NCBI GenBank assembly: GCA_041645165.1
Contig: JBAZQN010000012.1
Coordinates: forward strand, 636-64,635
From: Patescibacteria group bacterium
GTDB taxonomy: Bacteria; Patescibacteriota; Patescibacteriia; 2-02-FULL-49-11
Reading direction: 5' to 3'
Length of the DNA stretch: 64,000 nucleotides
How positions within the stretch are numbered: position 1 is the stretch's first letter; the number at the start of each line of letters is the position of its first letter. Shown here one piece after another: positions 16,869 through 62,583 of the stretch. The notes beneath the pieces are model-generated. The model had not been told where the DNA came from. It worked only from the letters and a program-made list of their open reading frames with translations, and did no database searches. The translations under genes were made by a program, and so were the position numbers.

Positions 16869-17041
16869 AGTTTATCTAAAATTTCATAACGGAGACCTCC
16901 CCTCGCGTGTCCCCTCCTTAGTAAGGAGGGGATGGGGTGGTTTCCAAAATTTAAACAATATTCTTTTTTAAGAGGTTCTTTGATTACCCTATCATAATCG
17001 TTAAGATTGGTCAAACGCAATCACTCTGGTATACTTTTAAT

Positions 17042-18567: not shown

Positions 18568-18687
18568 GTCATTCCCGCCCCGTATCACGGTACGGGGTAA
18601 ACTCCGGCGGGAATCCAGAAAATTAAAGTAAAATCGATGTTTTGTTTGTTTTTTATGTCTGGATTCCAGATCTCGGTCTGGAATGAC
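18568..18687. mobile_element. MITE-like element family A copy 1 (TIRs gtcattcccgcc ... ggaatgac, internal ccccgtatcacggtacgggg hairpin)
   Basis: Terminal inverted repeats and conserved core (ggaatccagaaaa...aaaatcgat...tttgtt...tctggattcc) shared with copies at 35969-36144, 38009-38131 and a partial copy at 47472-47590. Confidence 0.7.
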
Positions 18688-24367: not shown

Positions 24368-24577
24368 AGAGAGTGAAGAAGCGAGAATTTAGAATTAAAA
24401 ATTTAGCAGTAACTGCTCACTAACCCTCGACACCCCCACCACACCTCCCCCTTGTTAGGGGGAGGACAATCGTTGTTCTCCCCTGCCTGCGCAGGCAGGC
24501 CTGCCAGGGGGAGATGCAAAAGAGGGGGCTCCACTGCGGGATTGGAGAATGCCCCAGTGAGCAGTTACATTTAGCAC

Positions 24578-34203: not shown

Positions 34204-35097
34204 ATGGTACAATACATGAGCATGACTGAACCAACCCCCCCACATCCATATAAATGCGGTATCGTCGTCCTTATTGGCCGATCCAACGTCGGCAAATCAA
34301 CGCTCCTCAATGCCTTGGTGGGCGAGAAGGTAGCCCCGGTGTCGCCCCTGCCGCAGACGACGCGGCAGCCGGTGCAGGGCGTCCTCACCACTGATGAGGG
34401 ACAGTTGGTATTCGTGGATACGCCGGGATTGCTCAAGGGTTCGAAAGACAAGATCACGGGACGCATTAACCAGACGATTAAGGAAAGTTTGGAAGGCGTG
34501 GACCTTGTCCTTTATGTGGCAGACCCCACGCGCATGATTGGCGAAGAGGAGCGGGCGCTGCTCGCAATGGTAAGGCCTCTTCCTATTCCGAAATTGCTCG
34601 TGATCAACAAGAGCGAAATCGCGGATGCGCCTTATGGCGAGGATTACAGGGATCTGCGTGAAGATTTTGCCGCGATCATGGAAGTGTCGGCGCTCACTGG
34701 CAGCGGCCTTAAGGTTTTGGTGAATGAGTGCCTCGCGCGCCTCCCGGAGGGGGTCATGCTCTATCCTCCCGAAGAAAAGACGAATATATCTCACACGCGG
34801 TGGATTGAGGAAATGATCCGCGAGAAGCTTTATTATTATCTCCACAAGGAAGTGCCCTATACTGCCACGGTGCGCGTGGAAGAAATAAATGAACGGGCAA
34901 ACAAGGTGCTTTACATACGCGCCGTGGTGGTCACCACGGATGCGCGTTACCGCAAAATGATCATCGGACACGGCGCCCAGCGGATTAAGGAGATAGGCAC
35001 TGCGGCGCGCAAAGAGCTAAGCCTCGCCCTCAACCGGCCGGTGTACCTCGATCTTACCGTGGATGTAGATACGCATTGGATGACGAGGATGGAGTAA
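34204..35097 (+). CDS. era: GTPase Era
   Basis: G1 GRSNVGKSTLLNAL, G2 QTTRQP, G3 DTPG, G4 NKSE; C-terminal KH domain; 297 aa. Confidence 0.93.
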   Translation: MVQYMSMTEPTPPHPYKCGIVVLIGRSNVGKSTLLNALVGEKVAPVSPLPQTTRQPVQGVLTTDEGQLVFVDTPGLLKGSKDKITGRINQTIKESLEGVDLVLYVADPTRMIGEEERALLAMVRPLPIPKLLVINKSEIADAPYGEDYRDLREDFAAIMEVSALTGSGLKVLVNECLARLPEGVMLYPPEEKTNISHTRWIEEMIREKLYYYLHKEVPYTATVRVEEINERANKVLYIRAVVVTTDARYRKMIIGHGAQRIKEIGTAARKELSLALNRPVYLDLTVDVDTHWMTRME

Positions 35098-35104
35098 GGT
35101 TCTA

Positions 35105-35460
35105 TAAGACTAGAAATATGGTTCCATTACGCCGCGGTTGCCGCCTTTCTTGTTGCGGAACTCGGCTAATCGCTCGGATTGCCCGTTGCGCAACACGCGT
35201 CCCCGCCTCCAGCGCGGCGGGGCGCTCCGCCTCGGCAGGGCGACTCCGACGTGACGTCGGAGACCATGCTCGCCCTGCCTGCGGAGGGTAGCGCAAGAGC
35301 AATCCTCGCTTAGGGGAAGAATCGATCACACAGTCCCTGTCTGCCGTAGCCATTTCTACGGGGGTGTTCCCTACGTCAATGAGGATTCTATCATCATGGA
35401 TGTTGCCGTTCATTGTTGACAGGCGATGACAGGCGGGCTCACAGCGAAACGCGGCACCCG
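35105..35460. ncRNA. Candidate structured RNA: GC-rich 350-nt non-coding block with nested helices (class and strand undetermined)
   Basis: Nested pairing GCGCUCCGC/GCGGAG(GG)UAGCGC around GGCAGGGCGA/UCGCCCUGCC around CUCCGAC-GUGAC-GUCGGAG; AAUCCUC/GAGGAUU around UAGGGGAA/UUCCCUA around CCGUAG/CUACGG; only Arg-rich low-complexity ORFs; between era and a minus-strand gene. Confidence 0.3.
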
Positions 35461-35463
35461 CGG

Positions 35464-35973
35464 CTAGTCATACTTTAGAGAAGATTTATCTATAAGGCGA
35501 GGCGTGTGTTCTCGGGTAAAGATAAGTACGCCGATAAAAATAAGCACAATGCTGATAAGTACTGCACCTGCAGTGCTGGGATCATCGCGCGTAGTGGCAA
35601 CACCGGCGACTTGGCCGGTCGAAATAGTGACCGGCAGCTTGATGCCTGAAGCGGCATTTGTGGCTCGAACGGTTAAGGGACGGCCTAGGATGGAAATATT
35701 AGTTTTTGAGTTTATGGGTTGTTGAGTTTGTGAATAGTATTCAATGGTGACTGTGGCGGATTTATTGGGCTCCAAGAGGAATGTGGTGGGAGTAATGATG
35801 AATGGAAAGAGGCTGTCGTTTTCCACTTCGTAAATCACGGTTTCACGGGAGGGATTCATCACGGTAAACGTACCTGTGATTTTTTTATTTGCCGCGCCAT
35901 GGAGGGTCAGTTCTCGGGGCGAGACTGAAATACCTACAGCGAGTACAATAGGAGGAAGCATCCATAACGTCAT
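35464..35973 (-). CDS. Small secreted/anchored surface protein (N-terminal hydrophobic segment, beta-rich domain, C-terminal TM anchor)
   Basis: True start MTLWMLPPIVLAVGISV at 35973, where the ATG lies inside the proximal TIR (ggaATGac) of MITE A; the track N-terminus (…IPACAGM) is MITE read-through; C-terminal AVLISIVLIFIGVLIF anchor. Confidence 0.6.
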   Translation of the reverse strand: MTLWMLPPIVLAVGISVSPRELTLHGAANKKITGTFTVMNPSRETVIYEVENDSLFPFIITPTTFLLEPNKSATVTIEYYSQTQQPINSKTNISILGRPLTVRATNAASGIKLPVTISTGQVAGVATTRDDPSTAGAVLISIVLIFIGVLIFTREHTPRLIDKSSLKYD

Positions 35974-36144
35974 TCCCGCGCAGGCGGGAATCCAGATGAA
36001 AACAAAAAATAAAAATCGTAATGACTGTTTGTTTATCTTTGTTTCCCCGATCAGAGCCTGCCCCGTACTTGATACGGGGTCGGGGGCGGCGTCTGGATCC
36101 CGCATCAAGCCTGCCCCGTACCGCGATACGGGGTGCGGGATGAC
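35969..36144. mobile_element. MITE-like element family A copy 2 (with internal duplication of the ccccgta...tacgggg hairpin)
   Basis: gtcattcccgcgcaggcgggaatccag ... cgggatgac termini; supplies the start codon of 35464-35973. Confidence 0.7.
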
Positions 36145-36216
36145 GTTGAATAGTGTTTGGAAGCTCATACCCCCGGCGTTTAAGTGCGTTGTGAATGCGT
36201 GTGAATGCGATTTGTG

Positions 36217-38013
36217 TTACTGCGCCTGTCCCCAAAAGACGAGCGTACCTTGCGATACGCCTGTTTCGTTCCCGCTGGGCACGGAGAGCGCAACCTCCAC
36301 CGTTTGAGTTGATTGCGCATTAAGCGATGTGTCAAAAGATCTCCATGAAGAGCCCGAAAGCCGCAGGTTGTCGACAAAGAGCTCGTCGCCGCGGACCGCG
36401 CTGGTGAATGAAAGAGGCGCGTCTCCAGTATTGCGCAGGAGGAGCGTGCGGTCTGCGGCCCTGCCTTGCGGTACATTGCCAAAGTCAAGAAGCGAAGGCT
36501 CGACCGTGAACCCTAGGGTTACGCCGTCCGCATTTCCGCCACCGGGCGCGGGAACCACATAAACCAATAAACCCACTGCGTTGCCATCTCCTATCGTGAG
36601 GGTGACCCGATTGGAACGGATTGCGCCGTCAGCCTCCGCCCAAATGGTCCACACGCCATCCGATAATGTAATAGTCGCCTCGCCTTGCGCGTCTGTCTGT
36701 ATTGGTTCAGTCCCCCCATAGAGCGTGGCGGCAATCGGACTCCAACTATTATTGCTGAATTGTTGAATTGTTATATTGGCAGATTGGCCGTTGATCGTGC
36801 GGGTGGTAGATGCTGAAAGGCGCAAGGGACTCCACTCGAATTCCCCATAATACCAGAGCACTTCATCTCCCGGCGCTAATGCATAGTCAGCGGCGCCACG
36901 GTCAGGGAGTGCCCAGTTGACGCGGTAGAGCCACCCCTTTGTCCCTTGCGCCGCATCGTTGTTGATCGTCTTTACATAAGGGCCGAACGAGGTTTGCGGG
37001 ATATCATAGGTGAAGCCGCACGCAGATGCGGCAGCGGGAATGATATCTAAGGCGCTGGCTAGTTGCGGAGCGAGCGCGGCGGTGCCGGTGCAGACTGGGT
37101 TTAACGATCCTTCTATGCGGTAGGACACGGTCGTGGCATGTTCTGGCACAAAGGAGGCGACCGGGAGGCTTTTGCCTGCGAGCGCGATCACGGCATATGC
37201 GGTTGAGATCGGCGTGAACGAGGTTTCATCGGTGAAGGTGGAGGAATGCGCAAAACTGCCATTCGGCTGCTGCAGCGCAAGGAGGTGGTCAAGCGCGTCT
37301 TTGCCATTCTTTTCCCATGCGGAGGAAGCGGGATCCTGGCCTGCTTTTCTCACTGCGTGCGCAACCCAGGCGGAGGACGATGTGTCGGAAGGATCCGGCT
37401 CACTGGTATAGGGATTGGCGGGCCAGAAGTAGGGGAATCCGCCGTCCTCATTTTGCGTGCCCTTCAGCCAGAGAAGCGCTCTTGAAATTGGCTCTTGGGA
37501 TGGGGCGACTCCCGCTTCTATAAGCGCCTGAATGGCCGCTGCGGTGGTGTTGGTATCGCCCCATGACCCGTTCTCCTGCTGTGCATTGAGGAGAGTTGTT
37601 TTTGCGTCTTGGATCGCCGGGTCGTCAGAGGCCTCTCCTGCCGCAGAAAGCGCAAGAATTCCGAAAATATCATCGTTGAGAAGCGCAGGGTCGCCGATTT
37701 GGCCGTTGGTGTGGAACGTGTTGAGCTTCGCGACCAAGTCGATCCCGGTAAAAGTGCGGGGATCGTATCCTGCCGCGACAATCGCGAGTATCGGCGCTTC
37801 CATCGTGATGGCAGAGCTGGTATCTGCCGTTTTTAGGTATTCGGCAGGGACTTCTGTGTCTCCTGCGGCTACAAGCGCCATGGTAGCCCAGGGGGCGGCG
37901 GGTTTGGATTTGAGATAGGTAATGGCGCGGGAGAGAGGGGCGTCTGCTTGCAATGAGAGTGACGGGATAAGGGATGAGGCGATGAGGAGCGCGGTTACGC
38001 ACCTCACTGTCAT
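36217..38013 (-). CDS. Secreted prenyltransferase/squalene-oxidase-repeat (alpha/alpha-toroid) protein with C-terminal beta-sandwich domains
   Basis: Signal MTVRCVTALLIASSLIPSLSLQA; repeated QxxxGxW-like motifs (QQENGSWGD, TQNEDGGFPY, LQQPNGSFAH); true start at 38013 inside the MITE A TIR (gggATGac); the track N-terminal 62 aa are MITE read-through. Confidence 0.7.
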   Translation of the reverse strand: MTVRCVTALLIASSLIPSLSLQADAPLSRAITYLKSKPAAPWATMALVAAGDTEVPAEYLKTADTSSAITMEAPILAIVAAGYDPRTFTGIDLVAKLNTFHTNGQIGDPALLNDDIFGILALSAAGEASDDPAIQDAKTTLLNAQQENGSWGDTNTTAAAIQALIEAGVAPSQEPISRALLWLKGTQNEDGGFPYFWPANPYTSEPDPSDTSSSAWVAHAVRKAGQDPASSAWEKNGKDALDHLLALQQPNGSFAHSSTFTDETSFTPISTAYAVIALAGKSLPVASFVPEHATTVSYRIEGSLNPVCTGTAALAPQLASALDIIPAAASACGFTYDIPQTSFGPYVKTINNDAAQGTKGWLYRVNWALPDRGAADYALAPGDEVLWYYGEFEWSPLRLSASTTRTINGQSANITIQQFSNNSWSPIAATLYGGTEPIQTDAQGEATITLSDGVWTIWAEADGAIRSNRVTLTIGDGNAVGLLVYVVPAPGGGNADGVTLGFTVEPSLLDFGNVPQGRAADRTLLLRNTGDAPLSFTSAVRGDELFVDNLRLSGSSWRSFDTSLNAQSTQTVEVALSVPSGNETGVSQGTLVFWGQAQ

Positions 38014-38131
38014 CCCCGACCAGAACCTGCCCCGTACCGAGATACGGGGTCGGGGATCCAGAAGGGAAAAATAGACAAAAATCGATTTGTTTTTGTTCGT
38101 TTGTCTGGATTCCTGCTTTCGCAGGAATGAC
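38009..38131. mobile_element. MITE-like element family A copy 3
   Basis: gtcatccccgaccagaacctgccccgtaccgagatacggggtcggggatccag...aaaatcgatttgtttttgtt...tctggattcctgctttcgcaggaatgac; supplies the start codon of 36217-38013. Confidence 0.7.
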
Positions 38132-38152
38132 ACCAGCTGTGTGCGCATATAA

Positions 38153-38378
38153 GAAATAAAAAAAATCCACTCGAGGGAGTGGATGGTCTTAAAGCGCAAA
38201 GCATAAAATTGCGCATAAGGACCATGGTATAACTCTGCTCGGAGTCATGTGAGGGGGTTACTTTACTCCAGCGACCGGGCTTGTCCCGCCAAAATTTTGC
38301 TCTGCAAAACTTAGGCGGGCGTTACCGTTGCGGCACAGCGGGGGAATGAAACCCCACTTCCCTGTGAGTAAAGAGTCT
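38153..38378 (-). ncRNA. Candidate small RNA (about 210 nt) on the minus strand, ending in a strong intrinsic terminator
   Basis: Minus-strand hairpin aucCACUCccucGAGUGgau followed by U8 (38153-38184); upstream 190 nt folds into a multi-stem structure (UCUUUACUC/GAGUAAAG closing stem; CACAG..CUGUG; GCCCGCC-UAAG-UUUUGC-AGA-GCAAAA-UUUU-GGCGGGAC); no plausible ORF. Confidence 0.4.
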
Positions 38379-38383
38379 TGTGA

Positions 38384-39199
38384 ATGAGCTTTTCAAGCTT
38401 ATATCGGTTTGAATGGCAGGGCAAGTGGATAACTAGGGATGCGTCTGATATAATGAAGAGAGAATATATTTCTTTTATCAACGTTATAATCATGAATATG
38501 CCGCAGCGCCTCGGTTCATCCTCACCTCGCCGCGTCGTGGTATTTGTGGGTGTTATTGCGCTCATCGGGGTATATGTAGGATACGCGGTGGTTTCTCGTA
38601 CGTTTAAAAATCAGACACGCCAGGGCGCTCCTGCACCATCTGCAACCATGACGCAAGAGCCTACCCCAGATGAGCTGGCAGCGCGGCAGAACGTATGGAC
38701 CAGCGATGATCCGGTACGGGGGAATATTAAAGCCCAGGTGTCCATTGTGGAATTTAGCGATTTCGAGTGCCCTTATTGCCGTGAGGAGTATCCTATAATA
38801 AAGCAGCTCCTCGATACGTATGGAGCCCAGGTCCGGTTCCAGTACCGCGATTTCCCTATTTCTGAACCACACCCCAATGCGCAGAGTGCGGCAGAGGCGG
38901 CAGAGTGCGCGAGCGCCCAGGGCAAGTTTTGGGAATATCATAATATATTATTTGAGCATCAAGACAGCCTTACGCGCGAAGACCTCGGAAGGTATGCGCG
39001 CGAGGTCGGGCTCAATCTCAAACTTTTCAATCAGTGCCTGGACGGCCGTTCTAAAACGAATGAGGTGATTGCGGACTTTAACGATGGGCGCGCGTTAGGA
39101 GTTGGTGGCACGCCGACTTTTTTTATAAACGGAGCAAAGTATGCGGGAGTGTTTACCTATGAAGAATTGAAGGGGATTGTTGAGGAGTTATTAAAGTGA
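38384..39199 (+). CDS. DsbA-family thiol:disulfide oxidoreductase (thioredoxin fold, CPYC), membrane-anchored
   Basis: Active site FECPYCREEYP; TM VVVFVGVIALIGVYVGYAVV; likely true start at Met 38492/38498 (MNMPQRL...). Confidence 0.8.
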   Translation: MSFSSLYRFEWQGKWITRDASDIMKREYISFINVIIMNMPQRLGSSSPRRVVVFVGVIALIGVYVGYAVVSRTFKNQTRQGAPAPSATMTQEPTPDELAARQNVWTSDDPVRGNIKAQVSIVEFSDFECPYCREEYPIIKQLLDTYGAQVRFQYRDFPISEPHPNAQSAAEAAECASAQGKFWEYHNILFEHQDSLTREDLGRYAREVGLNLKLFNQCLDGRSKTNEVIADFNDGRALGVGGTPTFFINGAKYAGVFTYEELKGIVEELLK

Positions 39200-39297
39200 T
39201 AAATTTTCAATTCTCAATTTTACAATTTTCACTAAATGATTCAATGATTCAATTTTCAAACATTGGGAAATTGAAAATCAACTGAAAATTGAACATT

Positions 39298-39351
39298 GTC
39301 CCGCTCTTTGATCATTTTTTTAAATGTTAGCGGGATCCCGCCTAAGCGGGA
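39298..39351. repeat. Repeat family E module (gtcccgc...gcgggatcccgcc-taa-gcgggag) preceded by about 95 bp of ttgaaa/caaaat low-complexity sequence
   Basis: Contains GCGGGATCCCGC 12-bp perfect palindrome; sister modules at 39991-40047, 40820-40875, 42772-42828; the flanking AT-rich part is near-identical to 41900-42030. Confidence 0.7.
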
Positions 39352-39373
39352 GAAATTGATAATTATATTAAGT

Positions 39374-39901
39374 ATGGAAAAAACCCTAAAGACAATCATT
39401 ATCGGTGCTGACCATCGCGGGTGGCAGGCGAAGGAAGACCTTAAGCGTTCCATTGCAGAGTGGGGATATTTAATTGCTGATGAAGGGGCGCATGCGTATG
39501 ACGTGCATGATGATTATCCTGATATCGCCTATGCGGTGGCCTTGAGAGTCGCGCAGGAAGATGACATGCAGGGAGTGCTCCTGTGCGGATCCGGCGTGGG
39601 GATGTCAGTGGTTGCCAATAAAGTGCAAGGGATTCGCGCTTCCTTGTGCTTTTTTCCTGAACAAGCGGCAGCAGCCAAACACGATGATGATGCGAATGTG
39701 CTAGTGCTGTCCGTGGATTATCTGACCGCGGCACAGATGCGCCGCATTCTCAAGAGCTGGCTTGACACCGATTTTGCGCCGAAAGAGAAGTATATGCGGA
39801 GGTTGAGGAAGATTACTTTATTGGAGACACAAGGCTATCTGAAGAATGTCAAAGCTCAAAGTTCAAATGCCATGGTTCGACAGGCTCACCATGACAAATA
39901 A
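39374..39901 (+). CDS. rpiB: Ribose-5-phosphate isomerase B (RpiB/LacAB family)
   Basis: MEKTLKTIIIGADHRGWQAKEDL... CGSGVGMSVVANK; track ORF (TTG 39296) is read-through of repeat E. Confidence 0.88.
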   Translation: MEKTLKTIIIGADHRGWQAKEDLKRSIAEWGYLIADEGAHAYDVHDDYPDIAYAVALRVAQEDDMQGVLLCGSGVGMSVVANKVQGIRASLCFFPEQAAAAKHDDDANVLVLSVDYLTAAQMRRILKSWLDTDFAPKEKYMRRLRKITLLETQGYLKNVKAQSSNAMVRQAHHDK

Positions 39902-39990
39902 GACGTGTCATCCGAGAGCCTAAGTCGAAGGGTTGACACTCATTTGAGCTTTGAAATTTGTCATTGAGATTTTGAAATTCCTTTGAACTT

Positions 39991-40047
39991 TGTCCCGCAC
40001 TTTGAATTATTTTATCTAAGGTATGCGGGATCCCGCCTGAGCGGTGA
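39991..40047. repeat. Repeat family E module (identical 85-bp copy at 42756-42840)
   Basis: tttgaactttgtcccgcactttgaattattttatctaaggtatgcgggatcccgcctgagcggtgagattttgaaatt. Confidence 0.75.
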
Positions 40048-40066
40048 GATTTTGAAATTTGTCATT

Positions 40067-40723
40067 ATGCTAGAAGTTCTTCCTGCCATTATCGAAGATA
40101 CCTACGAGGAGGTGGAGAAAAAGCTAAACCTCGTGGCGCCCTTTGTGGACTGGGTGCAGATCGATGTGGGCGATGGCGCATTTGTGGCGCATAAGACCTG
40201 GAGTAGAATTGAAGACCTGTCATCTCTTTCCCTCGAATTGGCGATTGATTTGCATCTCATGGTACAGGACCCGCTCTCGTATGTGGCGCGCGCGCAGGCA
40301 ATACCGCAGATAAAACGCATCACGTTCCATATTGAATCTGCCGCGGAGGGTGCCGCCGTCTGCCATGCGATCAAGCGTGCAGACAGGGAAGCGGGGGTGG
40401 CGTTGAATCCTGATACATCGTTTTCAACACTTGCCAACTTCCATGGTATACTGGATGCACTTCTGCTCATGGGCGTGCATCCGGGATGGGGCGGGCAAAC
40501 ATTTATCCCTCGGACGCTTGAACGGATACGGGAAGCGCGCACACAATATAAAAAAATAAAGATTGGCGTGGACGGCGGCGTGCATCTTCAAAACGGAAGC
40601 GCGCAAGCTTGTGTGGACGCAGGAGTGGATTACCTTGTGGTTGGAAGCGAGATTTTTAACGCTCAAGAGCCAGCAGTAGTGATTAGAAGATTACAACAAC
40701 TGGTTCCTTCTTTTCGATCATAG
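40067..40723 (+). CDS. rpe: Ribulose-phosphate 3-epimerase
   Basis: IDVGDGAFV, DLHLMV, GVHPGWGGQTFI, VDGGV, GSEIF motifs of Rpe; track ORF start (39983) runs through repeat E; ATG MLEVLPAII follows the repeat. Confidence 0.85.
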   Translation: MLEVLPAIIEDTYEEVEKKLNLVAPFVDWVQIDVGDGAFVAHKTWSRIEDLSSLSLELAIDLHLMVQDPLSYVARAQAIPQIKRITFHIESAAEGAAVCHAIKRADREAGVALNPDTSFSTLANFHGILDALLLMGVHPGWGGQTFIPRTLERIREARTQYKKIKIGVDGGVHLQNGSAQACVDAGVDYLVVGSEIFNAQEPAVVIRRLQQLVPSFRS

Positions 40724-40819
40724 CGATAAATCCCAATGTCAAAATCCAAATATCAAATAAAGCTCAAATGTCCAATGTCCAAGGGTTGGGAATTGGGATT
40801 TTTGATTTTATTGGAAATT

Positions 40820-40875
40820 GTCCCGCACCATTATTTTCTAAATTTAAGGTATGCGGGATCCTGCCTAAGCGGGAG
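40820..40875. repeat. Repeat family E module
   Basis: gtcccgcaccattattttctaaatttaaggtatgcgggatcctgcctaagcgggag. Confidence 0.7.
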
Positions 40876-40901
40876 AAATTGGAAATTGGGATTTACGTCA
40901 T

Positions 40902-41903
40902 ATGTTTGATGTCATCACCATCGGCGCGGCAACCCAGGATGTATTCTTGATGAGCAAGGGTTTTCACCTTATGCGATCTTCTCGCATGAAACGGATATGT
41001 GAGTGTTTCCCTCTGGGCGAAAAAATAAACGTAGAGCGCATTGATTTTGAAACCGGCGGCGGAGCAACAAACGCTGCGGCGACTTTCCGTAATTTGGGAT
41101 TCAGCGCGGGTGTCATTGCCAAAGTAGGGGATGACAGCGCAGGCGCGGCGGTAGTAAATGATTTGCGCGGGAGAGGATTAAAGACTGATTGGGTGCGTCA
41201 CGTGGCGGGGGGCACGACTGGGTTTGCGGCCATACTCCTTACTCCCCACGGCGATCGCACGGCGCTTGTCCATAGGGGCGTGTCCGCCTCGTTTTCCTCT
41301 GCAGATATTCCTTGGCAGAAGCTCAATGCGGCGTGGCTTGTGGTCACTTCGCTTGCGGGAAACATCGCATTGCTCAAGCGCCTTATCAACGCAGCGTGCG
41401 CGCGTGGGGTGCGGGTCGCGTTCAATCCGGGCATGGGAGAATTGCGTTATGGTCTCGAAGTCCTTCGTAAGCATTGCAGCGCCGCGCATGTGCTGCTGCT
41501 CAATCGCGGAGAAGCGAACATGCTCGCCTCGCTGAAGTTCTGGCGAAGCGGGCTCGCGCCAGGCGCGCGTGATATCCGTGCGCTCCGGCGCCGTTTATCT
41601 GCCCGTTTTCAAAATGCCGTCGTGGTCACTGAGGGAGCGCGGGGCGCGTATTATTGGGATCAACGCCAGTTCTTATGGGCGCAGAGCAAAAAAGTGAAGG
41701 TGGTGAATTCTACGGGCGCGGGCGATGCATTTGGCGCCGGATTTATTTCTGGTATACTGCGCTGGCGTGACCCTGCGCGGGCGCTGCAACTGGCGACACT
41801 CAATGCGCTCGGCACGATACAACAGATGGGCGCTAAAAAAGGGTTGCTTACTAAATGGCCTACGCAAGCTATACTGGATGGAATTAAGATAACGTCATTA
41901 TAG
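40902..41903 (+). CDS. PfkB-family carbohydrate kinase (ribokinase-like)
   Basis: N-terminal DVITIGAATQDVF, GGGATNAA, C-terminal GAGDAFGAGFISG anion hole motif. Confidence 0.85.
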   Translation: MFDVITIGAATQDVFLMSKGFHLMRSSRMKRICECFPLGEKINVERIDFETGGGATNAAATFRNLGFSAGVIAKVGDDSAGAAVVNDLRGRGLKTDWVRHVAGGTTGFAAILLTPHGDRTALVHRGVSASFSSADIPWQKLNAAWLVVTSLAGNIALLKRLINAACARGVRVAFNPGMGELRYGLEVLRKHCSAAHVLLLNRGEANMLASLKFWRSGLAPGARDIRALRRRLSARFQNAVVVTEGARGAYYWDQRQFLWAQSKKVKVVNSTGAGDAFGAGFISGILRWRDPARALQLATLNALGTIQQMGAKKGLLTKWPTQAILDGIKITSL

Positions 41904-42032
41904 AATATTCAATTTTTCAATTCTCAATTTTACAATTTTCACTCAATGATTCAATGATCCAATTTTCAAACATTGAAAAATTGAAAATTAATTGAAAATT
42001 GAACATTGAAAATTGGAAATTATTAATAAATT

Positions 42033-42668
42033 ATGAATACACAAAAGGAACAAAAGAAGAATATTGGTTGGCTCAAGTATACGATATGCGTTTCAGGCGC
42101 TGCGGGCGGTCCCGTGGTGACGCAAGCGGCGATGGATAAAGCAAAAGAAATAGGCCGTGAGATCGTGCGGCACGGGTGTGTGCTCGTGACGGGCGCCACC
42201 ACCGGCATCCCCTATGCGGCTGCGCAGGGAGCAAAAGAGTTGGGTGGCATTTCCATAGGCCTGTCCCCCGCCTCCTCCGAGCGGGACCATATACGCCATT
42301 ACCACCTGCCGACCAAGTACTTTGATTTGATCATTTATACAGGATTCGATTATTCAGGAAGGAACCTCCTGCTCACCCGTGCTTCGGATGCGGTGATCGT
42401 CATTAATGGAAGGATAGGGACGCTCAACGAGTTTACCATTGCCTTTGAAGATCGGAAACCCATCGGGGTGCTTATCGAGAGCGGCGGTTCTGCTGATTTG
42501 ATAAAAGGGATTGTGAAGGCGGCGCAGAAAGGCGCGGGGAAAATTATCTATCACAACGAGCCGAAGGTATTGGTGGAAAAAGTGCTTGCACTGGTCAGGA
42601 AAGAAAAATTAATGAAGCCTCCTCTAAGCGAATACTTTTTGAACCACCATTATCATGGAAATGAATAG
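42033..42668 (+). CDS. LOG-family/TIGR00725 Rossmann-fold nucleotide-binding protein
   Basis: CVSGAAGGP...VVTGATTGIPYAAAQGA...GRIGTLNEF pattern of the SLOG/LOG superfamily; 211 aa. Confidence 0.7.
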   Translation: MNTQKEQKKNIGWLKYTICVSGAAGGPVVTQAAMDKAKEIGREIVRHGCVLVTGATTGIPYAAAQGAKELGGISIGLSPASSERDHIRHYHLPTKYFDLIIYTGFDYSGRNLLLTRASDAVIVINGRIGTLNEFTIAFEDRKPIGVLIESGGSADLIKGIVKAAQKGAGKIIYHNEPKVLVEKVLALVRKEKLMKPPLSEYFLNHHYHGNE

Positions 42669-42771
42669 GATGGGAAATCCCAATGACAAATTTCAAATGT
42701 CAAATGAATATCAAAGCTCAAAATCCAAATTTGACATTGGGGTTTTGAATTTTATTTGAACTTTGAACTTT

Positions 42772-42828
42772 GTCCCGCACTTTGAATTATTTTATCTAAG
42801 GTATGCGGGATCCCGCCTGAGCGGTGAG
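42772..42828. repeat. Repeat family E module (identical to 39991-40047)
   Basis: 85-bp exact duplicate. Confidence 0.75.
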
Positions 42829-42864
42829 ATTTTGAAATTATGGTGATGGCTGGTCGCAATAACC

Positions 42865-43827
42865 TTGTTATTTTTTATGAAGAGTCGAAATAAATATGAT
42901 TTGATAATTGTCGGTGGTGGTGCCGCAGGATATGCCGCGGCGCTCTACGCGAAACGGTATGAACTTTCTGTGTTGTTGATAGAAGGAGAAACTCCCGGAG
43001 GAGAAACCGCAAATGCGGGATTAATTGAAAATTATCCCGGTTTTGATGCGATTGACGGGTATGAGCTCTATCAGAAATTCCGCAGCCATGCGCTCAAGTT
43101 CGGCGCTGAAATCCAATCGGGCAGGGTTGAGAAAGTGACACAAGAAGGCCATCAGTTCAAAGTGTCCGTAGGGGGACAAGGCGAGAAGGAAGGCTTATGC
43201 ATTATATTCGCCCATGGTCAGGCGCGCAGGAGATTGGGGCTTCCAAGCGAAGATCGCTTAACCGGCAAAGGGGTATCTTACTGCGTCACCTGCGACGGGC
43301 CATTGTACAAAGGGAAGACCGTGGGGATTGTGGGAGGGGGCGATGCGTCGGTGAAAGGAGTAAATCTGCTTACTGAATTCGTTCATAAAGTTTTCTTAAT
43401 TGTTATGCTGGGGCAAGTGAACGCAGAACCTATTAATTTTCGGCTCATGCAAAGCAAGGGTGACAAGGTTGAAGTGTTATACCATACGCAAGTAAAAGAG
43501 TTATTAGAAGAGAGCGGAAAATTCGCGGGAGTGAAGCTCTCACCGGGTTATCAAGGAAATGACATCCTTAAGCTTGATGGGTTGTTTATAGAAATCGGCG
43601 CAGTGCCGGATCGGGCGCTTCCCGCATCTCTGGGGGTGGCGCTCGCCGAGAGCGGGCATATTCACGTGGACCAATTCATGCGGACGAACATCGCGGGTAT
43701 TTTTGCCGCAGGGGACGTGACGGACGCCACGGGATCATTCCGCCAGATCGTCACCGCGGCCGCGCAAGGGTCCATCGCGGCGACCAGCGCGTATGAGTAT
43801 CTGAAAATCCTAAATCCGAAATCCTAA
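42865..43827 (+). CDS. trxB: Thioredoxin-disulfide reductase (NAD(P)H, FAD)
   Basis: YDLIIVGGGAAGYAAALYA FAD motif, redox CVTCDG, NADPH GIVGGGD, C-terminal FAAGDV; probable start ATG 42877. Confidence 0.9.
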   Translation: MLFFMKSRNKYDLIIVGGGAAGYAAALYAKRYELSVLLIEGETPGGETANAGLIENYPGFDAIDGYELYQKFRSHALKFGAEIQSGRVEKVTQEGHQFKVSVGGQGEKEGLCIIFAHGQARRRLGLPSEDRLTGKGVSYCVTCDGPLYKGKTVGIVGGGDASVKGVNLLTEFVHKVFLIVMLGQVNAEPINFRLMQSKGDKVEVLYHTQVKELLEESGKFAGVKLSPGYQGNDILKLDGLFIEIGAVPDRALPASLGVALAESGHIHVDQFMRTNIAGIFAAGDVTDATGSFRQIVTAAAQGSIAATSAYEYLKILNPKS

Positions 43828-43911
43828 ACAAACTCAAAGCACAAAATTCAAAGGTGAAACAGTTTTGTATTTCGGATTTGTTTAGAGTTTAGTGTTTAGT
43901 ATTTAGAGTTT

Positions 43912-44055
43912 ATGCTATTAAGCGACCTCTGCGAATGCGGCTCTGGTTTAGTCTATGGCGCGTGCCATGGTTCCATGGAGCCGTGCGACTGCGGATCCGG
44001 CGATCCTGCGGGCAGCTGTTGTTATGACGTTGACAATGGCGAGGAGGAAGAATAA
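43912..44055 (+). CDS. Cys-rich 47-aa ORF MLLSDLCECGSGLVYGACHGSMEPCDCGSGDPAGSCCYDVDNGEEEE between trxB and tlpA
   Basis: Uninterrupted ATG-TAA frame (below the track cutoff), 7 Cys in CxC...C...CxC...CC spacing, acidic tail; genome-typical GC. Confidence 0.4.
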   Translation: MLLSDLCECGSGLVYGACHGSMEPCDCGSGDPAGSCCYDVDNGEEEE

Positions 44056-44089
44056 CAAAAAAGCAAAATGCAAAACTCAAAATTATGGA

Positions 44090-44106
44090 GTCCCGCAAAG
44101 CGGGAC
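44090..44106. repeat. Repeat family E minimal hairpin gtcccgc-aaa-gcgggac within the 95-bp module upstream of tlpA
   Basis: Module near-identical to 23095-23190. Confidence 0.65.
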
Positions 44107-44160
44107 AGAATTCTTTCATTTTGATTTTTGGTCTTTGATTTTTGCATTTCACACAAAGGT

Positions 44161-44805
44161 ATGTCCTTTCCCCACCGCGTGAGACCAGGAAGGCGCGCCC
44201 AAGCCCGCCTGTCTGGGCGCAGGACGAAATGGTTCTTAGGAGCCGCGGCGCTGTTGCTTGTGTCAGGCGGCGTTCTTTTTTTATATTTCACCAGAGGGAC
44301 CACCCTTGTGCTAGATAGTGCGGACGTGTCAGGTGAAGCCTCATCCACCGCCCAAGACATCCCTCCTGCCGGAAGCGATGAGTTCATGCCGCCTTTTTCG
44401 GCGGACACGTTCGAAGGGAAACGTTTTTCAGTGGCGGAGTATGAGGATAAAACCGCGGTTATTATTGATTTTTGGGCTTCATGGTGTTCGTTTTGCGTAA
44501 AGGAAATGCCGCTTATACAGCACATGGCGGATTTGTACGGGAAAGACAAGCTTACCGTGGTCGGCATTCATCGCGGCGACTCTGAGCCTGTAGAAAAGGG
44601 AGTAGCGCTCGCGGCGAAGTTAGGGATAAAATATCTCCTGCTCCAGGATCCTGAAGGGAAATATTTCAAGTTGCTCGGGCAGGGGAAACCATTCATGCCG
44701 CTTACCATATTTATAGACCGCGAAGGGCGCATAGTGGAGCGGCGCATCGGCCCCAAAACGGCGGAAGAAATACGGGTGAGCACGGCGAAGATCATAGCCC
44801 CATGA
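44161..44805 (+). CDS. TlpA/ResA-family thiol-disulfide oxidoreductase (thioredoxin-like, membrane-anchored)
   Basis: WASWCSFCVKEMP active site; N-terminal anchor LGAAALLLVSGGVLFLYF; ATG directly after the repeat E module; track ORF 44128 (TTG) is read-through. Confidence 0.85.
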   Translation: MSFPHRVRPGRRAQARLSGRRTKWFLGAAALLLVSGGVLFLYFTRGTTLVLDSADVSGEASSTAQDIPPAGSDEFMPPFSADTFEGKRFSVAEYEDKTAVIIDFWASWCSFCVKEMPLIQHMADLYGKDKLTVVGIHRGDSEPVEKGVALAAKLGIKYLLLQDPEGKYFKLLGQGKPFMPLTIFIDREGRIVERRIGPKTAEEIRVSTAKIIAP

Positions 44806-44974
44806 GGGGAAATTCTAAACTCTCTCGTTACGCGAGATCTGGCGTAGCCAGATAAATTCTAAATACTAAACAAATCCAAAATCCAAATTACCGAAATTCA
44901 AAACGATTTTGGGCATTTGGGTTTTGAGCTTGGAATTTATTTAGGATTTAGGGCTTCGGATTTAGAGCTTCTCA

Positions 44975-45922
44975 ATGTTTTTGCACACTTTCCATCCTTC
45001 TCCCATTCTTTTTTCTTTTGGTCCCTTTTCCGTCCACTGGTACGGTCTTTTCATGCTCGCAGGCGTCGCGGCAGGCTACGCAATTGCGCGGCGCACGTTT
45101 GCGTGGGCGCGCGTTTCCCCCTCGGTCCTTGATCGTCTCGTCACTGCGCTCATTCTGGGCGGCTTCATAGGCGCCCGACTCTATCATGTCCTGAACGTAT
45201 TCGGGTATTATTGGTCGCATCCTTTGGACGTGTTCGCCGTGTGGAAAGGGGGTCTTGCGATCCACGGCGCGCTCTTGGGAGGATTGATTGCATTGTGGTG
45301 GTTTGTCGGCAAGCGTACACACCCTGTCCCGATATGTCGGGACATCCCTCTCAAGAGGGGATTTCGTACGGTCGAGTCCCCTCCTACGGAGGGGTGGCCG
45401 CAGGCCGGGGTGGGTGGTGCCCGCGAAAGGTTGTGCACATGTTTACTGATCACCGACCTCCTTGCGCCTTCCGTCGCGCTCGGCCAGGCGATTGGCCGCT
45501 GGGGAAATTATTTTCGGCAGGAGCTCTATGGCCTGCCGACTGACCTGCCGTGGGGAATTCCCATCGATGCTGCGCATCGGCTCTCTGATTTCACGCAGTA
45601 CAAATATTTTCATCCCGTATTTCTCTATGAGTCAGTGTGGTTAATCATTGTGTGTATTATCCTTCTTGTCATCCTGAGCGGAGTGATGCGGAGCAGAACA
45701 GAGTCGAAGGATCTCCGGCGAATGCCGGTCGGTCGCATCTTCTTCCTCTACCTCATCCTTGCAGGACTCGGGAGATTCTTCATAGAATTTTTACGCATCG
45801 ACCCGATGCCGCTGGTGTACGGCGTGCGCCTGCAGCAGCTCGTGAGTATAATCTTAATAATGGTAGGATTTGGTGGAATTGTTTGGATGCGGCACCTGGC
45901 TCGGGGAGGAGAAGATAATTAA
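44975..45922 (+). CDS. lgt: Phosphatidylglycerol-prolipoprotein diacylglyceryl transferase
   Basis: HWYGLFMLAGV, Lgt signature GQAIGRWGNYFRQELYG; about 35-aa in-frame insertion relative to typical Lgt. Confidence 0.85.
   Translation: MFLHTFHPSPILFSFGPFSVHWYGLFMLAGVAAGYAIARRTFAWARVSPSVLDRLVTALILGGFIGARLYHVLNVFGYYWSHPLDVFAVWKGGLAIHGALLGGLIALWWFVGKRTHPVPICRDIPLKRGFRTVESPPTEGWPQAGVGGARERLCTCLLITDLLAPSVALGQAIGRWGNYFRQELYGLPTDLPWGIPIDAAHRLSDFTQYKYFHPVFLYESVWLIIVCIILLVILSGVMRSRTESKDLRRMPVGRIFFLYLILAGLGRFFIEFLRIDPMPLVYGVRLQQLVSIILIMVGFGGIVWMRHLARGGEDN
45322..45425 (+). repeat. Palindrome-dense in-frame insertion inside lgt (three consecutive hairpins)
   Basis: gtcccgatatgtcgggac, tccctctcaagagggga, cccctcctacggagggg, then ggccgcaggcc; encodes HPVPICRDIPLKRGFRTVESPPTEGWPQAGVGG, directly before the Lgt signature. 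Confidence 0.6.
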
Positions 45923-45927
45923 TTCTA

Positions 45928-46656
45928 TTGCATAAAACAGAAGAAACGTGTACGATAGCCAGTGAAGAAATACTGCATATCATGCCAAAATATAAAGCAA
46001 AAAATGAAAATTTTTTTAAACACTGGTCGCCTTCGATGGCATATACACTTGGTTTTTTCTGCGCAGACGGTTCGATGTTTGTAAATCCACGAGGGAGCAG
46101 GTATGTTGCCTTTTACTCAAATGACAGGAATGTGCTTGAATTTATTCGCAGGGCTATTGGTGCGGCACATAAAATAAGTGTCAAACAAGTAGGGAAATTC
46201 GGAAGGAAATCGCCAGCATATTTTCTTCAGATTGGGAGTAAAGAAATGTTTATTGACTTGTCCCGAATGGGTATCATGATCAATAAGAGTAAACGAATGG
46301 TGCTTCCAGATATTCCTGAGGATTGCTTCTCTCCTTTTGTGAGGGGTTATTTTGACGGAGACGGCAATGTCGTGTATGGTCTATATAAAAGAAAAGCTCG
46401 GCCCCATCCTGCGAGGATATTACGGGTTAGCTTTACTTCAGGGAGCAGGGGGTTTCTTAAATCGTTATCGGAAAGATTATTTAGTACGTTACAGATTGAA
46501 GGTGTTCTAAGTTATTACGGGAGAGCATGGCGCCTTGTGTATAGCAATCGTCCATCATTACACTTATTGGAGTTTATGTATGCGCCTCGCTTAGATCAGC
46601 TTCCCGTGCTACAAAGAAAATTTGAGAGGTTTATAAAAGCGAAAAAATATATGTAG
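45928..46656 (+). CDS. Free-standing LAGLIDADG homing endonuclease (two-motif, monomeric type)
   Basis: LGFFCADGSMF and RGYFDGDGNVV LAGLIDADG motifs; about 40% GC against about 55% flanks; stop codon abuts tRNA-Asp. Confidence 0.85.
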   Translation: MHKTEETCTIASEEILHIMPKYKAKNENFFKHWSPSMAYTLGFFCADGSMFVNPRGSRYVAFYSNDRNVLEFIRRAIGAAHKISVKQVGKFGRKSPAYFLQIGSKEMFIDLSRMGIMINKSKRMVLPDIPEDCFSPFVRGYFDGDGNVVYGLYKRKARPHPARILRVSFTSGSRGFLKSLSERLFSTLQIEGVLSYYGRAWRLVYSNRPSLHLLEFMYAPRLDQLPVLQRKFERFIKAKKYM

Positions 46657-46731
46657 GGGCCGGTGGTGTAGCCTGGTTTGCACACCTCCCTGTCACGGAG
46701 GTAGTCGCGGGTTCAAATCCCGTCCGGCCCG
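46657..46731 (+). tRNA. tRNA-Asp (anticodon GTC)
   Basis: GGGCCGG/CCGGCCC acceptor stem, anticodon arm CCUCC-CUGUCAC-GGAGG, T-arm GUUCAAAUC, discriminator G, no encoded CCA. Confidence 0.9.
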
Positions 46732-47471: not shown

Positions 47472-47590
47472 TCATCCCGCACCGAGCCTGCCTGAACTTG
47501 ATTCGGGGATGCGGGATCCAGAGGACACCTCTTTCGTCATTCCGGATTTATTCCGGAATCCAGAAAAAACAAAAATACAATAACGATATT
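47472..47590. mobile_element. MITE-like element family A, partial/rearranged copy
   Basis: tcatcccgcaccgagcctgcc...ggggatgcgggatccag and gtcattccggatttattccggaatccagaaaaaacaaaaa; right TIR missing. Confidence 0.5.
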
Positions 47591-60641: not shown

Positions 60642-61219
60642 TGATTGTCGGAGACCAGCTCCGACGCTACCAATCAATTCCCACAGATCGCCAACCAAGG
60701 TGATCTGTTTATTTTTGAATTTTCAACGAACGTTCCGCTTGGTAACTCCTCCTTGCTTCCTCCTCTTAAGGTAAGAGGAGGTGAGGTGGAGTTATGTGGA
60801 TCGTGATCTCTGATCCGGAGAGAATGAGGGGAGAGACTTCCCGCGAAGCGGGAAACCCGCATCCCATCCGGATCAGAGAGAACGAAGTCCTTTATCTTAA
60901 CAAAAATACCCTCTTTGTCGAGAGGGCCGGCGGTAACAGTTAAACAGTTTAGCAGCCTGACAATTTGTCAGTGTAGCAGTTTAACAGTTCGTGCTGATTC
61001 CGGTCTCTCTCGGAATTGTTTTGGCCAAGTCTCTCGATTGGCGCTTGTATCGCGGACTGACGCGGAACGTCACGCTTGGGCTTCTCGCGGAATTACGCGG
61101 AAAAGTGTCTGCGTGGGTCTGCGTTTAGTCAGCGAATGTCTGCGATTTTTCAAAGTTAACAGGCCATTATAGCGCAGCCGCAGGATTTGTCAAGGGCCTA
61201 AGGGGCATGGTAGGATAAT

Positions 61220-61718: not shown

Positions 61719-62583
61719 GGTATTTGAATAGCACGTCGCAGGCCCGTATGAGGGCTTTTTTATTTTAAGCTCTTGACAACTTCATAATTGATATGTTAGG
61801 GTGCACCTTCCCTTCAATATTAAGATTCACGTATAAATAGTCTGTATAGGTCTGCGATATGCGTGAAATGTAAATTTTGTAGGGGCGTGGAGCACCAACA
61901 GACGAATTGCAGCTTAAAGAACCGGAAGGGCTTGAAAAAGCCCAGAGAGGAAGCACAAGGAGGCATAAGGTATCGCTCCACCACGATTTTGGCAGGAGCG
62001 TTTTTTGTTGTAACTGACTTGGAATTTTCGATGTTTATCCACCCTATCATTTCTATCCGTCTTATTAGTTTTATCCAACTTATCAAAACATAACCATTTA
62101 ACCATGTAGCCATTTAATAACAGTCCGATTCCCGCCGTCTTTCCGGACGGCAATAGGTGACCCGAAGACAATCGCGATCTGCTCCACAGTTGCGGTTTGC
62201 TCGCCGGCAGTATCACCTATTGCTATCTGGGATGACAAAGAGTGTACATTGAAAATTTAAATACCAATACATGCCTCGACTGGCGCGCCTTGGGCAGAAT
62301 CCTCAAAAAGTTCCTCTCCCTAGTAAGGGAGAGGTGTAGGTGAGGGTGTACAACAATTTAACAGTTTAACAGTGTAGCAATTTAACCATGTAGCATTGCA
62401 TCAATGTAGCAGTTTAACAATTCACCAAGGGTTTCCTCCCAGCGTGCGTCAGTCATGAGGCAATTAAAAAACCAAAAATAGCCGGTTGGACTTGCCCCGT
62501 AGTGAAACGAAGTTTCTACTACTGGGGTGTGCAATTCCGGCAGAACTTCCTCCTTCAAAACCAATAGAGGGAAGAAAAACATC

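Follow-up and report, generated by a model that had tools for sequence, protein, structure and literature searches.

Rickettsia palindromic elements (RPE) are repeats of ~100-150 nt that are found in intergenic DNA and also in frame within housekeeping ORFs, where their translation adds peptide segments at places that the protein fold can accommodate (Ogata et al., 2000; PMC10969869). The GTAG and CGTC REPs consist of tagged hairpin monomers and head-to-head dimers and are mostly extragenic (Di Nocera et al., 2013; PMC3733652). Their intragenic dimers encode 20-30 residues, often in uvrA and uvrB, and the CGTC REPs are without a dedicated transposase (PMC3733652). Bacterial MITEs are small, non-autonomous, multi-copy elements with terminal inverted repeats (PMC10969869). 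Finally, Whalefall-1 (RF01762), known from metagenomes only, has been rated a free-standing non-coding RNA (Weinberg et al., 2010; PMC2864571). Only for Rickettsia are in-frame, protein-coding palindromes textbook material; elsewhere, intragenic REPs are reported in scattered cases.

The DNA analysed here is a 64-kb stretch of a Patescibacteria genome, referred to as the window, whose lgt gene contains a palindromic unit (Table 1). With a probability of about 80%, this unit is an intact copy of a dispersed, non-autonomous, REP/MITE-like selfish repeat that is tolerated as a disordered loop of the protein. A preliminary description had placed an in-frame, hairpin-rich insertion of ~100 nt and ~35 aa in lgt, immediately before the signature motif GQAIGRWGNYF. 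Both the insertion and its perfect hairpins are confirmed in the sequence and the size was close, the exact unit comprising 99 nt and 33 aa, but the signature actually begins ~25 residues further downstream. The case is best placed with the in-frame palindromic selfish repeats, a kind already known, of which it is a new form with an unexpectedly broad distribution. Literature searches with sequence strings, and for Patescibacteria together with MITE or palindrome, found nothing relevant to such an element.

Table 1. Features of the lgt element, related units in the window (window positions), and copies in other loci
Feature	Position or locus	Strand	Details
lgt ORF hosting the element	44975-45922	+	315 aa, from the ORF list
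Complete palindromic element	45317-45415	+	99 nt, 33 codons, aa 115-147, peptide THPVPICRDIPLKRGFRTVESPPTEGWPQAGVG
P1 5' strand, C-rich tag ACACACCCT	45317-45325	+	Pairs with 45407-45415 in RNA and DNA folds
Optional hairpin Ha GTCCCGAtatgTCGGGAC	45326-45343	+	Perfect; arms TGTCCCGA/TCGGGACA, 8 bp at 45325-45344
P2 hairpin CCCTCTCAAGAGGG	45346-45359	+	CCCTCT/AGAGGG; translated PLKRG
Linker tttcgtacggtcgag	45362-45376	+	Variable in other copies, A/T-rich, 8-40 nt
P3 hairpin CCCCTCCtacGGAGGGG	45378-45394	+	CCCCTCC/GGAGGGG, 7 bp; translated SPPTEG
Optional hairpin Hb GGCCgcaGGCC	45396-45406	+	
P1 3' strand, G-rich tag GGGGTGGGT	45407-45415	+	Pairs with 45317-45325
Flanks of the lgt element			5' side ends GGCAAGCGT; 3' side starts GGTGCCCGC
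Peptide from the Lgt insert region			GFRTVESPPTEGWPQAGVGGAR
Single-hairpin monomer, intergenic	16893-16943	-	R1 12.7 bits, E 0.17
Related unit, intergenic	24429-24518	-	R1 14.0 bits, E 0.065
Single-hairpin unit, intergenic	60743-60794	-	R1 14.6 bits, E 0.042
Single-hairpin unit, intergenic	62265-62349	+	R1 13.6 bits, E 0.087
Lgt site 2	L001/L003 (P0002/P0003)		CTCCCCCTTacgAAGGGGGAG
Lgt site 2	L002 (P0005)		TCTCCCCCTaataAGGGGGAGA
Lgt site 1	L009 (P0011)		Identical CCCTCTCAAGAGGGGA 16-mer, frame as in the window
Lgt sites 1 and 2	L010, L011		Several such hairpins
UvrB	L019		Unit between N-terminal helicase region and Helicase_C (Pfam)
UvrA	L051		Pfam-confirmed host ORF
OMP decarboxylase (PyrF)	L049		Pfam domain split into two stretches
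Tc-toxin-like protein	L025		Pfam-confirmed host ORF
ThuA-domain protein, 1446 aa	L071		Pfam-confirmed host ORF

The start of the element coincides with a codon boundary. Its general layout is a C-rich 5' tag, ACACACCCC, paired with a G-rich 3' tag, GGGGTGGGT, which together enclose two hairpins (P2 and P3) and up to two extra ones. In P2 and P3 the 5' arms are all pyrimidine and the 3' arms all purine; the window holds six such pyrimidine/purine hairpins, against 0.7 in Markov simulations. The arrangement can be read as a head-to-head dimer in which each monomer comprises a tag and one hairpin. The region is more structured than chance: compared with dinucleotide shuffles, the folding energy of the exact 99-nt unit is -56.3 kcal/mol for RNA (z -4.8) and -27.6 kcal/mol for DNA (z -4.2), and 0 of 200 shuffles were equally stable in either case. 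The three back-to-back hairpins of the preliminary description are present, not as independent structures but as parts of one unit with a closing stem (P1). These three or four hairpins of lgt form one element rather than an accumulation, because the copy matches independent copies at ~70% identity over its full length, optional hairpins included (L034, L021, L025, L019, and L052, which keep the four-hairpin layout). The linker is similar to that of L052, Ha has homologues at the equivalent position in L021 and L052, and a hairpin nearly identical to Hb, GGCTCGCAGAGCC, occupies the equivalent position in L034.

Copies outside the window were collected with a composite metagenome pattern of CCCTCTCAAGAGGG, 10-40 nt, CCCCTCC, 3-7 nt, and GGAGGGG, i.e., 28 specified bases from P2 and P3. 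This pattern matches 66 loci with a G+C content of 0.32 to 0.63. Around them, ACACACCCC recurs upstream and (A)GGGGTGGGT downstream, and the tag patterns are matched by 56 of the 66 loci, though absent from the search pattern. Optional hairpins of other copies lie between the tag and P2 or between P3 and the 3' tag. A covariance model (R1) was built from 11 minimal copies, all other than the lgt insert. That insert is the best match of R1 in the window (24.5 bits, E 3e-5), and fetched loci totalling 551 kb yield 160 matches, several to a contig. R1 also detects copies independent of the pattern in other lgt genes, at Lgt site 2 in L001/L003 (81 nt) and at Lgt site 1 in L009.

Pairing was assessed on 114 distinct sequences in an alignment fitted to the model, with both strands of quasi-palindromic units included. 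Paired cells amount to 94%, compared with 84% after shuffling and ~65% when partners are slid, and double changes are present at all 23 pairs. The paired share is 89% for P1, whose nine pairs all carry double changes, 96% for P2, and 99% for P3. In P3, as in the whole unit, base-pair changes are almost only CG<->UA, which keeps the 5' arms pyrimidine and the 3' arms purine. Covariation in this alignment supports all three helices. The minimum-energy fold of the single sequence cross-pairs P2 with P3; this alternative is disfavoured, as only 78-80% of its cells are paired, against 96-99% for the local hairpins.

In about one third of the 66 loci the unit lies within a long ORF. All three frames are in use, and P2 is accordingly read as PSQEG, PLSRG or PLKRG. 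Since three different peptides arise from the same DNA across hosts, it is the nucleic acid that is conserved and not the peptide. In addition to the hosts in Table 1, copies are found near the N-termini of PBP1-, LptD/OstA- and HlyD-family ORFs, and the remainder reside in AT-rich intergenic DNA. No frame-breaking copy was seen among the intragenic ones, and in almost all intergenic loci the upstream ORF stops well before the unit. Element length modulo 3 says nothing about selection, as the boundaries can be placed only to within 1-2 nt. Hosts could be resolved for two loci: L019 belongs to Patescibacteria and L051 to Balneolaceae, its UvrA being 85-91% identical to Fodinibius and Balneolaceae proteins. 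Judging from these assignments, the same unit is present in at least two phyla and in many unrelated loci. The suggestion that a dispersed REP/MITE-type element had landed in a coding region is therefore supported by ~70% identical copies at unrelated loci, both intergenic and in three frames.

Direct evidence from nucleotide comparison points to recent transposition of a sister family that carries the same hairpin cluster. Its members (L013, L015, L018, L029, L038, L039, and L041) share 97-100% identity across 140-185 nt, and the DNA around them is unrelated. Terminal inverted repeats of 18 bp delimit these copies, and two of the three complete ones display 3-bp target duplications. In the lgt-type unit the terminal inverted repeat is the imperfect 9-bp pair of tags, 89% paired, and no consistent target-site duplication is visible in the flanks of its copies. 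In the 146 ORFs that flank 77 loci, no transposase or other family is seen to be enriched, and no RAYT is conspicuous in the 25 commonest Pfam families of these ORFs. No related insertion sequence, autonomous and sharing the ends of the unit, was found in the 77 loci, in plasmids or in viral contigs, and the unit itself has no match in the plasmid collection (blastn) or in the viral contigs (pattern). The element may have spread as DNA in a REP- or MITE-like manner, its single-strand hairpins being recognised by a transposase acting in trans. Under selection, only insertions that keep the frame in permissive surface loops would survive.

The resemblance to RPE, compared by description, consists in a palindromic repeat that is both intergenic and in frame in unrelated ORFs, and the insertions in Lgt, UvrB, UvrA and PyrF are in frame at fold-compatible positions. 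However, the hosts are Patescibacteria and Balneolaceae instead of Rickettsia. The present unit is also shorter (69-99 nt), has pyrimidine/purine hairpins and ACACACCCC/GGGGTGGGT tags, and is used in three frames, so that there is no single conserved peptide. With the REPs it shares the tagged hairpin monomer, the dimers and the uvrA/uvrB hosts, as well as short, stable hairpins that are dispersed and multi-copy. By contrast, its tag is a C-rich block of 9-10 nt and pyrimidines alone make up its 5' arms, purines alone its 3' arms. Neither GTAG nor CGTC adjoins P2 or P3, the unit ending in ACACACCCT and GGGGTGGGT. Like MITEs, the element is small, non-autonomous and multi-copy; the closing stem is its sole terminal repeat, and the lgt-type unit has yielded no target duplication or parent insertion sequence.

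Only one canonical copy, that in lgt, occurs in the window: blastn gives no second full copy there, and the covariance model adds weak monomer relatives only. The dispersed CCCCTCC-loop-GGAGGGG units to which the preliminary description likened the insert are indeed related, but as single-hairpin monomers with weak matches (E 0.04-0.17). The unit at 16893-16943, for example, consists of the tag ACCACCCC followed by the hairpin TCCCCTCCTT..AAGGAGGGGA. Whalefall-1, the closest of the Rfam families although below threshold, resembles such a monomer on the opposite strand in its CUCUCC/GGAGAG-type hairpin, its variable hairpin and its G-rich tail (AGGGUGAGGAC, compared with AGGGUGUGUAC in the present unit). 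The Rfam model scores 17.2 bits at 45315-45364 on the minus strand and 12.6 bits at 62310-62347, both against a gathering score of 37. Unlike the present unit, it was published as an RNA and not as a dispersed repeat inside ORFs. Possibly, although we would not bet on it at even odds, there is a hitherto unrecognised cross-phylum class of tagged palindromic elements that routinely colonises protein-coding genes of the genome-reduced Patescibacteria and of Balneolaceae, with Whalefall-1 as one of its monomer forms. Such a class, which we put forward tentatively, would combine a C-rich tag with a pyrimidine/purine hairpin in monomers, dimers and trimers. If it exists, it would have its own mobilisation machinery or a function at the RNA level, and would generate loop variation quite generally in the conserved proteins of these bacteria.

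The unit in the lgt mRNA could instead be functional rather than selfish, a Whalefall-1-like module acting in transcripts on mRNA stability, processing or translational pausing, or as a protein-binding site. This is unlikely. It would account for the covarying helices, the strong conservation of the tags across phyla, and the sub-threshold likeness to Whalefall-1 in order and sequence. It would also fit the orientation of the intragenic copies, which are mostly sense (~11 to 1, non-redundant). However, hairpin covariation is equally expected if single-strand DNA is recognised, and the unit scores well on both strands under R1. Searches of the window and of 15 canonical loci against Rfam give no match at the gathering threshold. 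The copies also show no gene association, as 200 different Pfam families are represented in the 146 neighbouring ORFs, the 25 most frequent being housekeeping ones, and about one third of the copies between genes run antisense to the gene on either side. Reverse-strand stop codons account for part of the sense bias: an element has on average 1.6 open frames in the forward direction (1.26 when shuffled) and 0.93 in reverse (1.27 when shuffled). As proof of an RNA function it is marginal once these stops are allowed for. The idea that the element is built to be stop-free in all frames was rejected as a strong claim, since only the hairpin arms are intrinsically so.

The lgt gene, called essential in the preliminary description, is only assumed to be so in the source organism. 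Its product matches the Pfam family LGT (PF01790) at 3e-65, split over two stretches, with 220 bits against a gathering cut-off of 24.9, and is 100% identical to the Lgt of a Patescibacteria MAG at NCBI. The counterparts of E. coli Y26, H103, R143, N146, E151, G154, R239, and E243 are all retained. In the comparison with E. coli Lgt (5AZB), query residues 2-113 correspond to 6-119 and 156-305 to 125-282. Thus, ~42 residues of the window protein stand for 5 in E. coli (between residues 119 and 125), which form a cytoplasmic turn between TM3 and TM4. As H103 is at the periplasmic end of TM3 and the signature motif at the periplasmic end of TM4, the element extends this cytoplasmic turn. No significant part in catalysis falls to the cytosolic face of Lgt (PMC4728403). 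An AF2 model of the protein has a confident core (pLDDT 84, pTM 0.85) and renders residues ~113-148 as a low-confidence coil (pLDDT 47-72). Placed on the membrane topology in this way, a check that the preliminary description had proposed, the insert comes out as a predicted loop, disordered and on the cytoplasmic side, whose peptide has a high content of Pro, Gly and Arg. In lgt the element would merely be translated, as its open frame suggests, and would play no catalytic role.

The lgt genes of relatives bear on whether this is an ordinary, lineage-specific protein loop in which the hairpins are incidental. An alignment of 29 Patescibacteria Lgt proteins reveals two hypervariable sites with unrelated inserts of 0 to ~70 residues. 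Site 1 is flanked by the HG-containing helix on one side and on the other by the helix that ends in GQAIGRWGNYF, and site 2 follows the YES-W helix. Such variation in length at both sites, and the 41-residue loop of the same length in the closest relatives, would suit an ordinary loop. As the preliminary description had anticipated, however, the alignment shows that the loop is not conserved as protein, relatives having unrelated or no sequence there. The same-length loop of the closest relatives is only 47% identical in nucleotides within the alignment block, which is near-random. A phmmer search of 1.84 billion representatives finds no protein relatives of the peptide except one spurious eukaryotic repeat protein. 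Together with the intergenic copies and those in three frames of unrelated genes, which are not lgt fragments, and the fold z-scores given above, this makes an ordinary loop very improbable. Many inserts at the two sites contain SPPxEG, PLKRG or SPLxKGE, which are translated CCCCTCC...GGAGGGG-type hairpins, and the DNA confirms that diverged copies of the element fill two cytoplasmic lgt loops in other Patescibacteria (Table 1). A protein search with Lgt in species-representative contigs gave only 5 loci, the source MAG not being among the representatives.

The nearest relative sampled is Candidatus Uhrbacteria RIFCSPLOWO2_02_FULL_49_11 (L004), which is collinear with positions 34250-45920 of the window and 85-96% identical to it in genes at the nucleotide level. 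Its Lgt site 1 carries an unrelated AT-rich insert of equal length, and its site 2 another, CGTC-type palindromic element in frame. The AT-rich, same-length insert of L001, L003 and L004 was considered as a decayed copy and has no convincing similarity to the element. Relative to L004, lgt is a recombination mosaic, with 97% identity at the 5' end, 47-64% over 45055-45455, and ~90% thereafter. No empty-site allele of the window lgt was found, the nearest relative having its different insert of the same length, so that, with the gene mosaic, the insertion event in lgt itself is one that we infer. It can be dated no further than as not shared with the nearest sampled relative. The highly divergent middle block of the mosaic, and the abundance of nested hairpins in this genome, might also be taken to indicate a local origin without transposition, by template-switching or gene conversion in a fast-evolving loop. 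Such a process would not, however, recreate a 99-nt, four-hairpin layout with tags that is found in other phyla, and a local origin is highly unlikely.

Turnover at a defined position is seen in UvrB of Patescibacteria relatives, where the site between YEL and IVEQLIRPTG is empty in P0127, P0131, and P0134. P0123 and P0125 carry differently framed elements there, and P0126, P0129, and P0130 carry AT-rich inserts. P0125 and P0126 are close relatives, yet unlike at this site.

GC-rich palindromic bypass elements are known from yeast mitochondria. Removal or skipping of the insert, by a mini-intron, RNA excision or translational bypass of the T4 gene 60 or yeast mitochondrial 'byp' type, has this precedent and the very stable RNA (-56 kcal/mol) in its favour and is nevertheless very unlikely. 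Every intragenic copy examined is spanned by one continuous ORF, and in Lgt, UvrB and OMP decarboxylase, where both halves could be assigned to a family, Pfam domains are matched before as well as after the element. Moreover, no split genes were seen (ORF distances at those of the 66 loci classed as intergenic; flanks read for 11 of them), no self-splicing intron or ribozyme family of Rfam is matched even at E up to 10, and preservation of the frame would not be needed. An intein can be rejected, since the insert has 33 aa and the minimum is ~130 aa.

A dispersed selfish repeat of this kind would bring the phenomenon of coding palindromes to Balneolaceae and to Patescibacteria, whose small, gene-dense genomes have little intergenic room. 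It would explain many puzzling, variable-length inserts in conserved Patescibacteria proteins, which affect alignments, phylogenies and structure prediction. Such inserts may also serve as natural maps of insertion-tolerant loops; in the antibiotic target Lgt, for instance, they mark two cytoplasmic turns. Given the likeness to Whalefall-1, one or more of the 'orphan' RNA motifs from metagenomes may be mobile repeats, and the asymmetry of the arms, together with the conserved tags, offers a handle for finding the recognising protein.

Nested hairpins are a common feature of this genome in general. A separate repeat family of the window, GTCATYCC...GGRATCCAGA, looks CGTC-tagged.

The lgt gene displays a recombination-like mosaic when compared with its nearest relative, the Candidatus Uhrbacteria RIFCSPLOWO2_02_FULL_49_11 locus L004 (window 44860-45925 vs. 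L004 9886-11026). The upstream spacer and the first ~190 nt are 97% identical to L004, identity is 47-64% across window 45055-45455 and about 90% across 45455-45660, and the 3' end is divergent. P0005, the protein carried by locus L002, is the nearer match to the window protein across the divergent block. Directly 5' of lgt lies a long, imperfect AT-rich palindrome (aaatccaaaatccaaatt...aatttatttaggattt, window 44855-44970), which shares 97% identity with L004; similar AAATCCAAA-type sequences fill the intergenic regions of loci L002 and L003. A free-standing ORF with a LAGLIDADG domain is located between lgt and tRNA-Asp. At loci L003 and L005, the homologue of window 46828 onward begins within about 200-280 nt after lgt, and judging by this distance the endonuclease gene appears to have been inserted in the window's lineage; it might be related to the mosaic pattern of lgt.

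A sister family of the lgt element, found around the metagenome pattern match at L013, L015, L018, L029, L038, L039 and L041, contains the element in a three-hairpin form, bounded on both sides by terminal inverted repeats that are 18 bp long and perfect (GAGGCTCTTGCAAAAGTC / GACTTTTGCAAGAGCCTC). Target duplications of 3 bp (ATT, CAA) accompany two of the three complete copies, and copies at unrelated loci are 97-100% identical.

The window also contains a second repeat family, in which GTCAT(T/C)CC-hairpin-GG(A/G)ATCCAGA units are arranged as head-to-head dimers with an A-rich/T-rich spacer in the middle. Some units are preceded by a C, generating a CGTC tag (7 matches vs. 0 expected) that resembles the CGTC-REPs of Di Nocera et al. 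The Lgt of L004 has a complete copy, in frame, at its second hypervariable insert site (VIPGLTRDPERKNKNRFSLRFWIPACAGMTV). The loops of other hairpins of this family hold nested CCCCGTA-N6-TACGGGG hairpins, and such palindrome-within-palindrome nesting appears to be common in the source genome of the window. The ATG start codon of a downstream gene comes from the terminal GGGGATGAC of one repeat (MTVRCVTALLIAS / MTWKCVTALLIAS); two genomes share this arrangement at orthologous positions, so the repeat may provide the gene with its 5' UTR and start.

Coordinates of repeats and neighboring features in the window and related loci
Feature	Position	Remark
GTCATYCC-family repeat	window 18568-18687, 35969-36144, 38009-38131, 47536-47564	
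GTCATYCC-family repeat	L004 10709-10797	
Nested CCCCGTA-N6-TACGGGG hairpins	window 36061-36079, 36114-36133, 38030-38049, 18578-18597	
Repeat-derived start codon	window 38005-38135	gene on minus strand, 36217 to about 38007
Repeat-derived start codon	L005 3540-3640	
LAGLIDADG-domain ORF	window 45928-46656	
tRNA-Asp	window 46657-46731	
Third repeat (TCCCGCAC..AAGGTATGCGGGATCCCGCCTAAGCGGGA)	window 40018-40033, 40846-40861, 42798-42813	partial copy near 39329

UvrA of the Balneolaceae locus L051 (3243-6626) measures 1127 aa, compared with 936-938 aa in its relatives, and includes, in addition to the palindromic element, an inserted DUF559 endonuclease-like domain (aa 289-396). The Patescibacteria UvrB proteins P0124, P0128 and P0137 have additional variable inserts at a second site, upstream of LTFIDESH, and one of these, in P0137, includes a hairpin-type string (PPFSSPLRKGGEW). 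Multiple permissive sites per protein seem to be colonized.

A third repeat of the window (TCCCGCAC..AAGGTATGCGGGATCCCGCCTAAGCGGGA) is intergenic, and its units span about 40-55 nt. No copy occurs at the orthologous sites in the close relative L004, making this repeat a presence/absence polymorphism.
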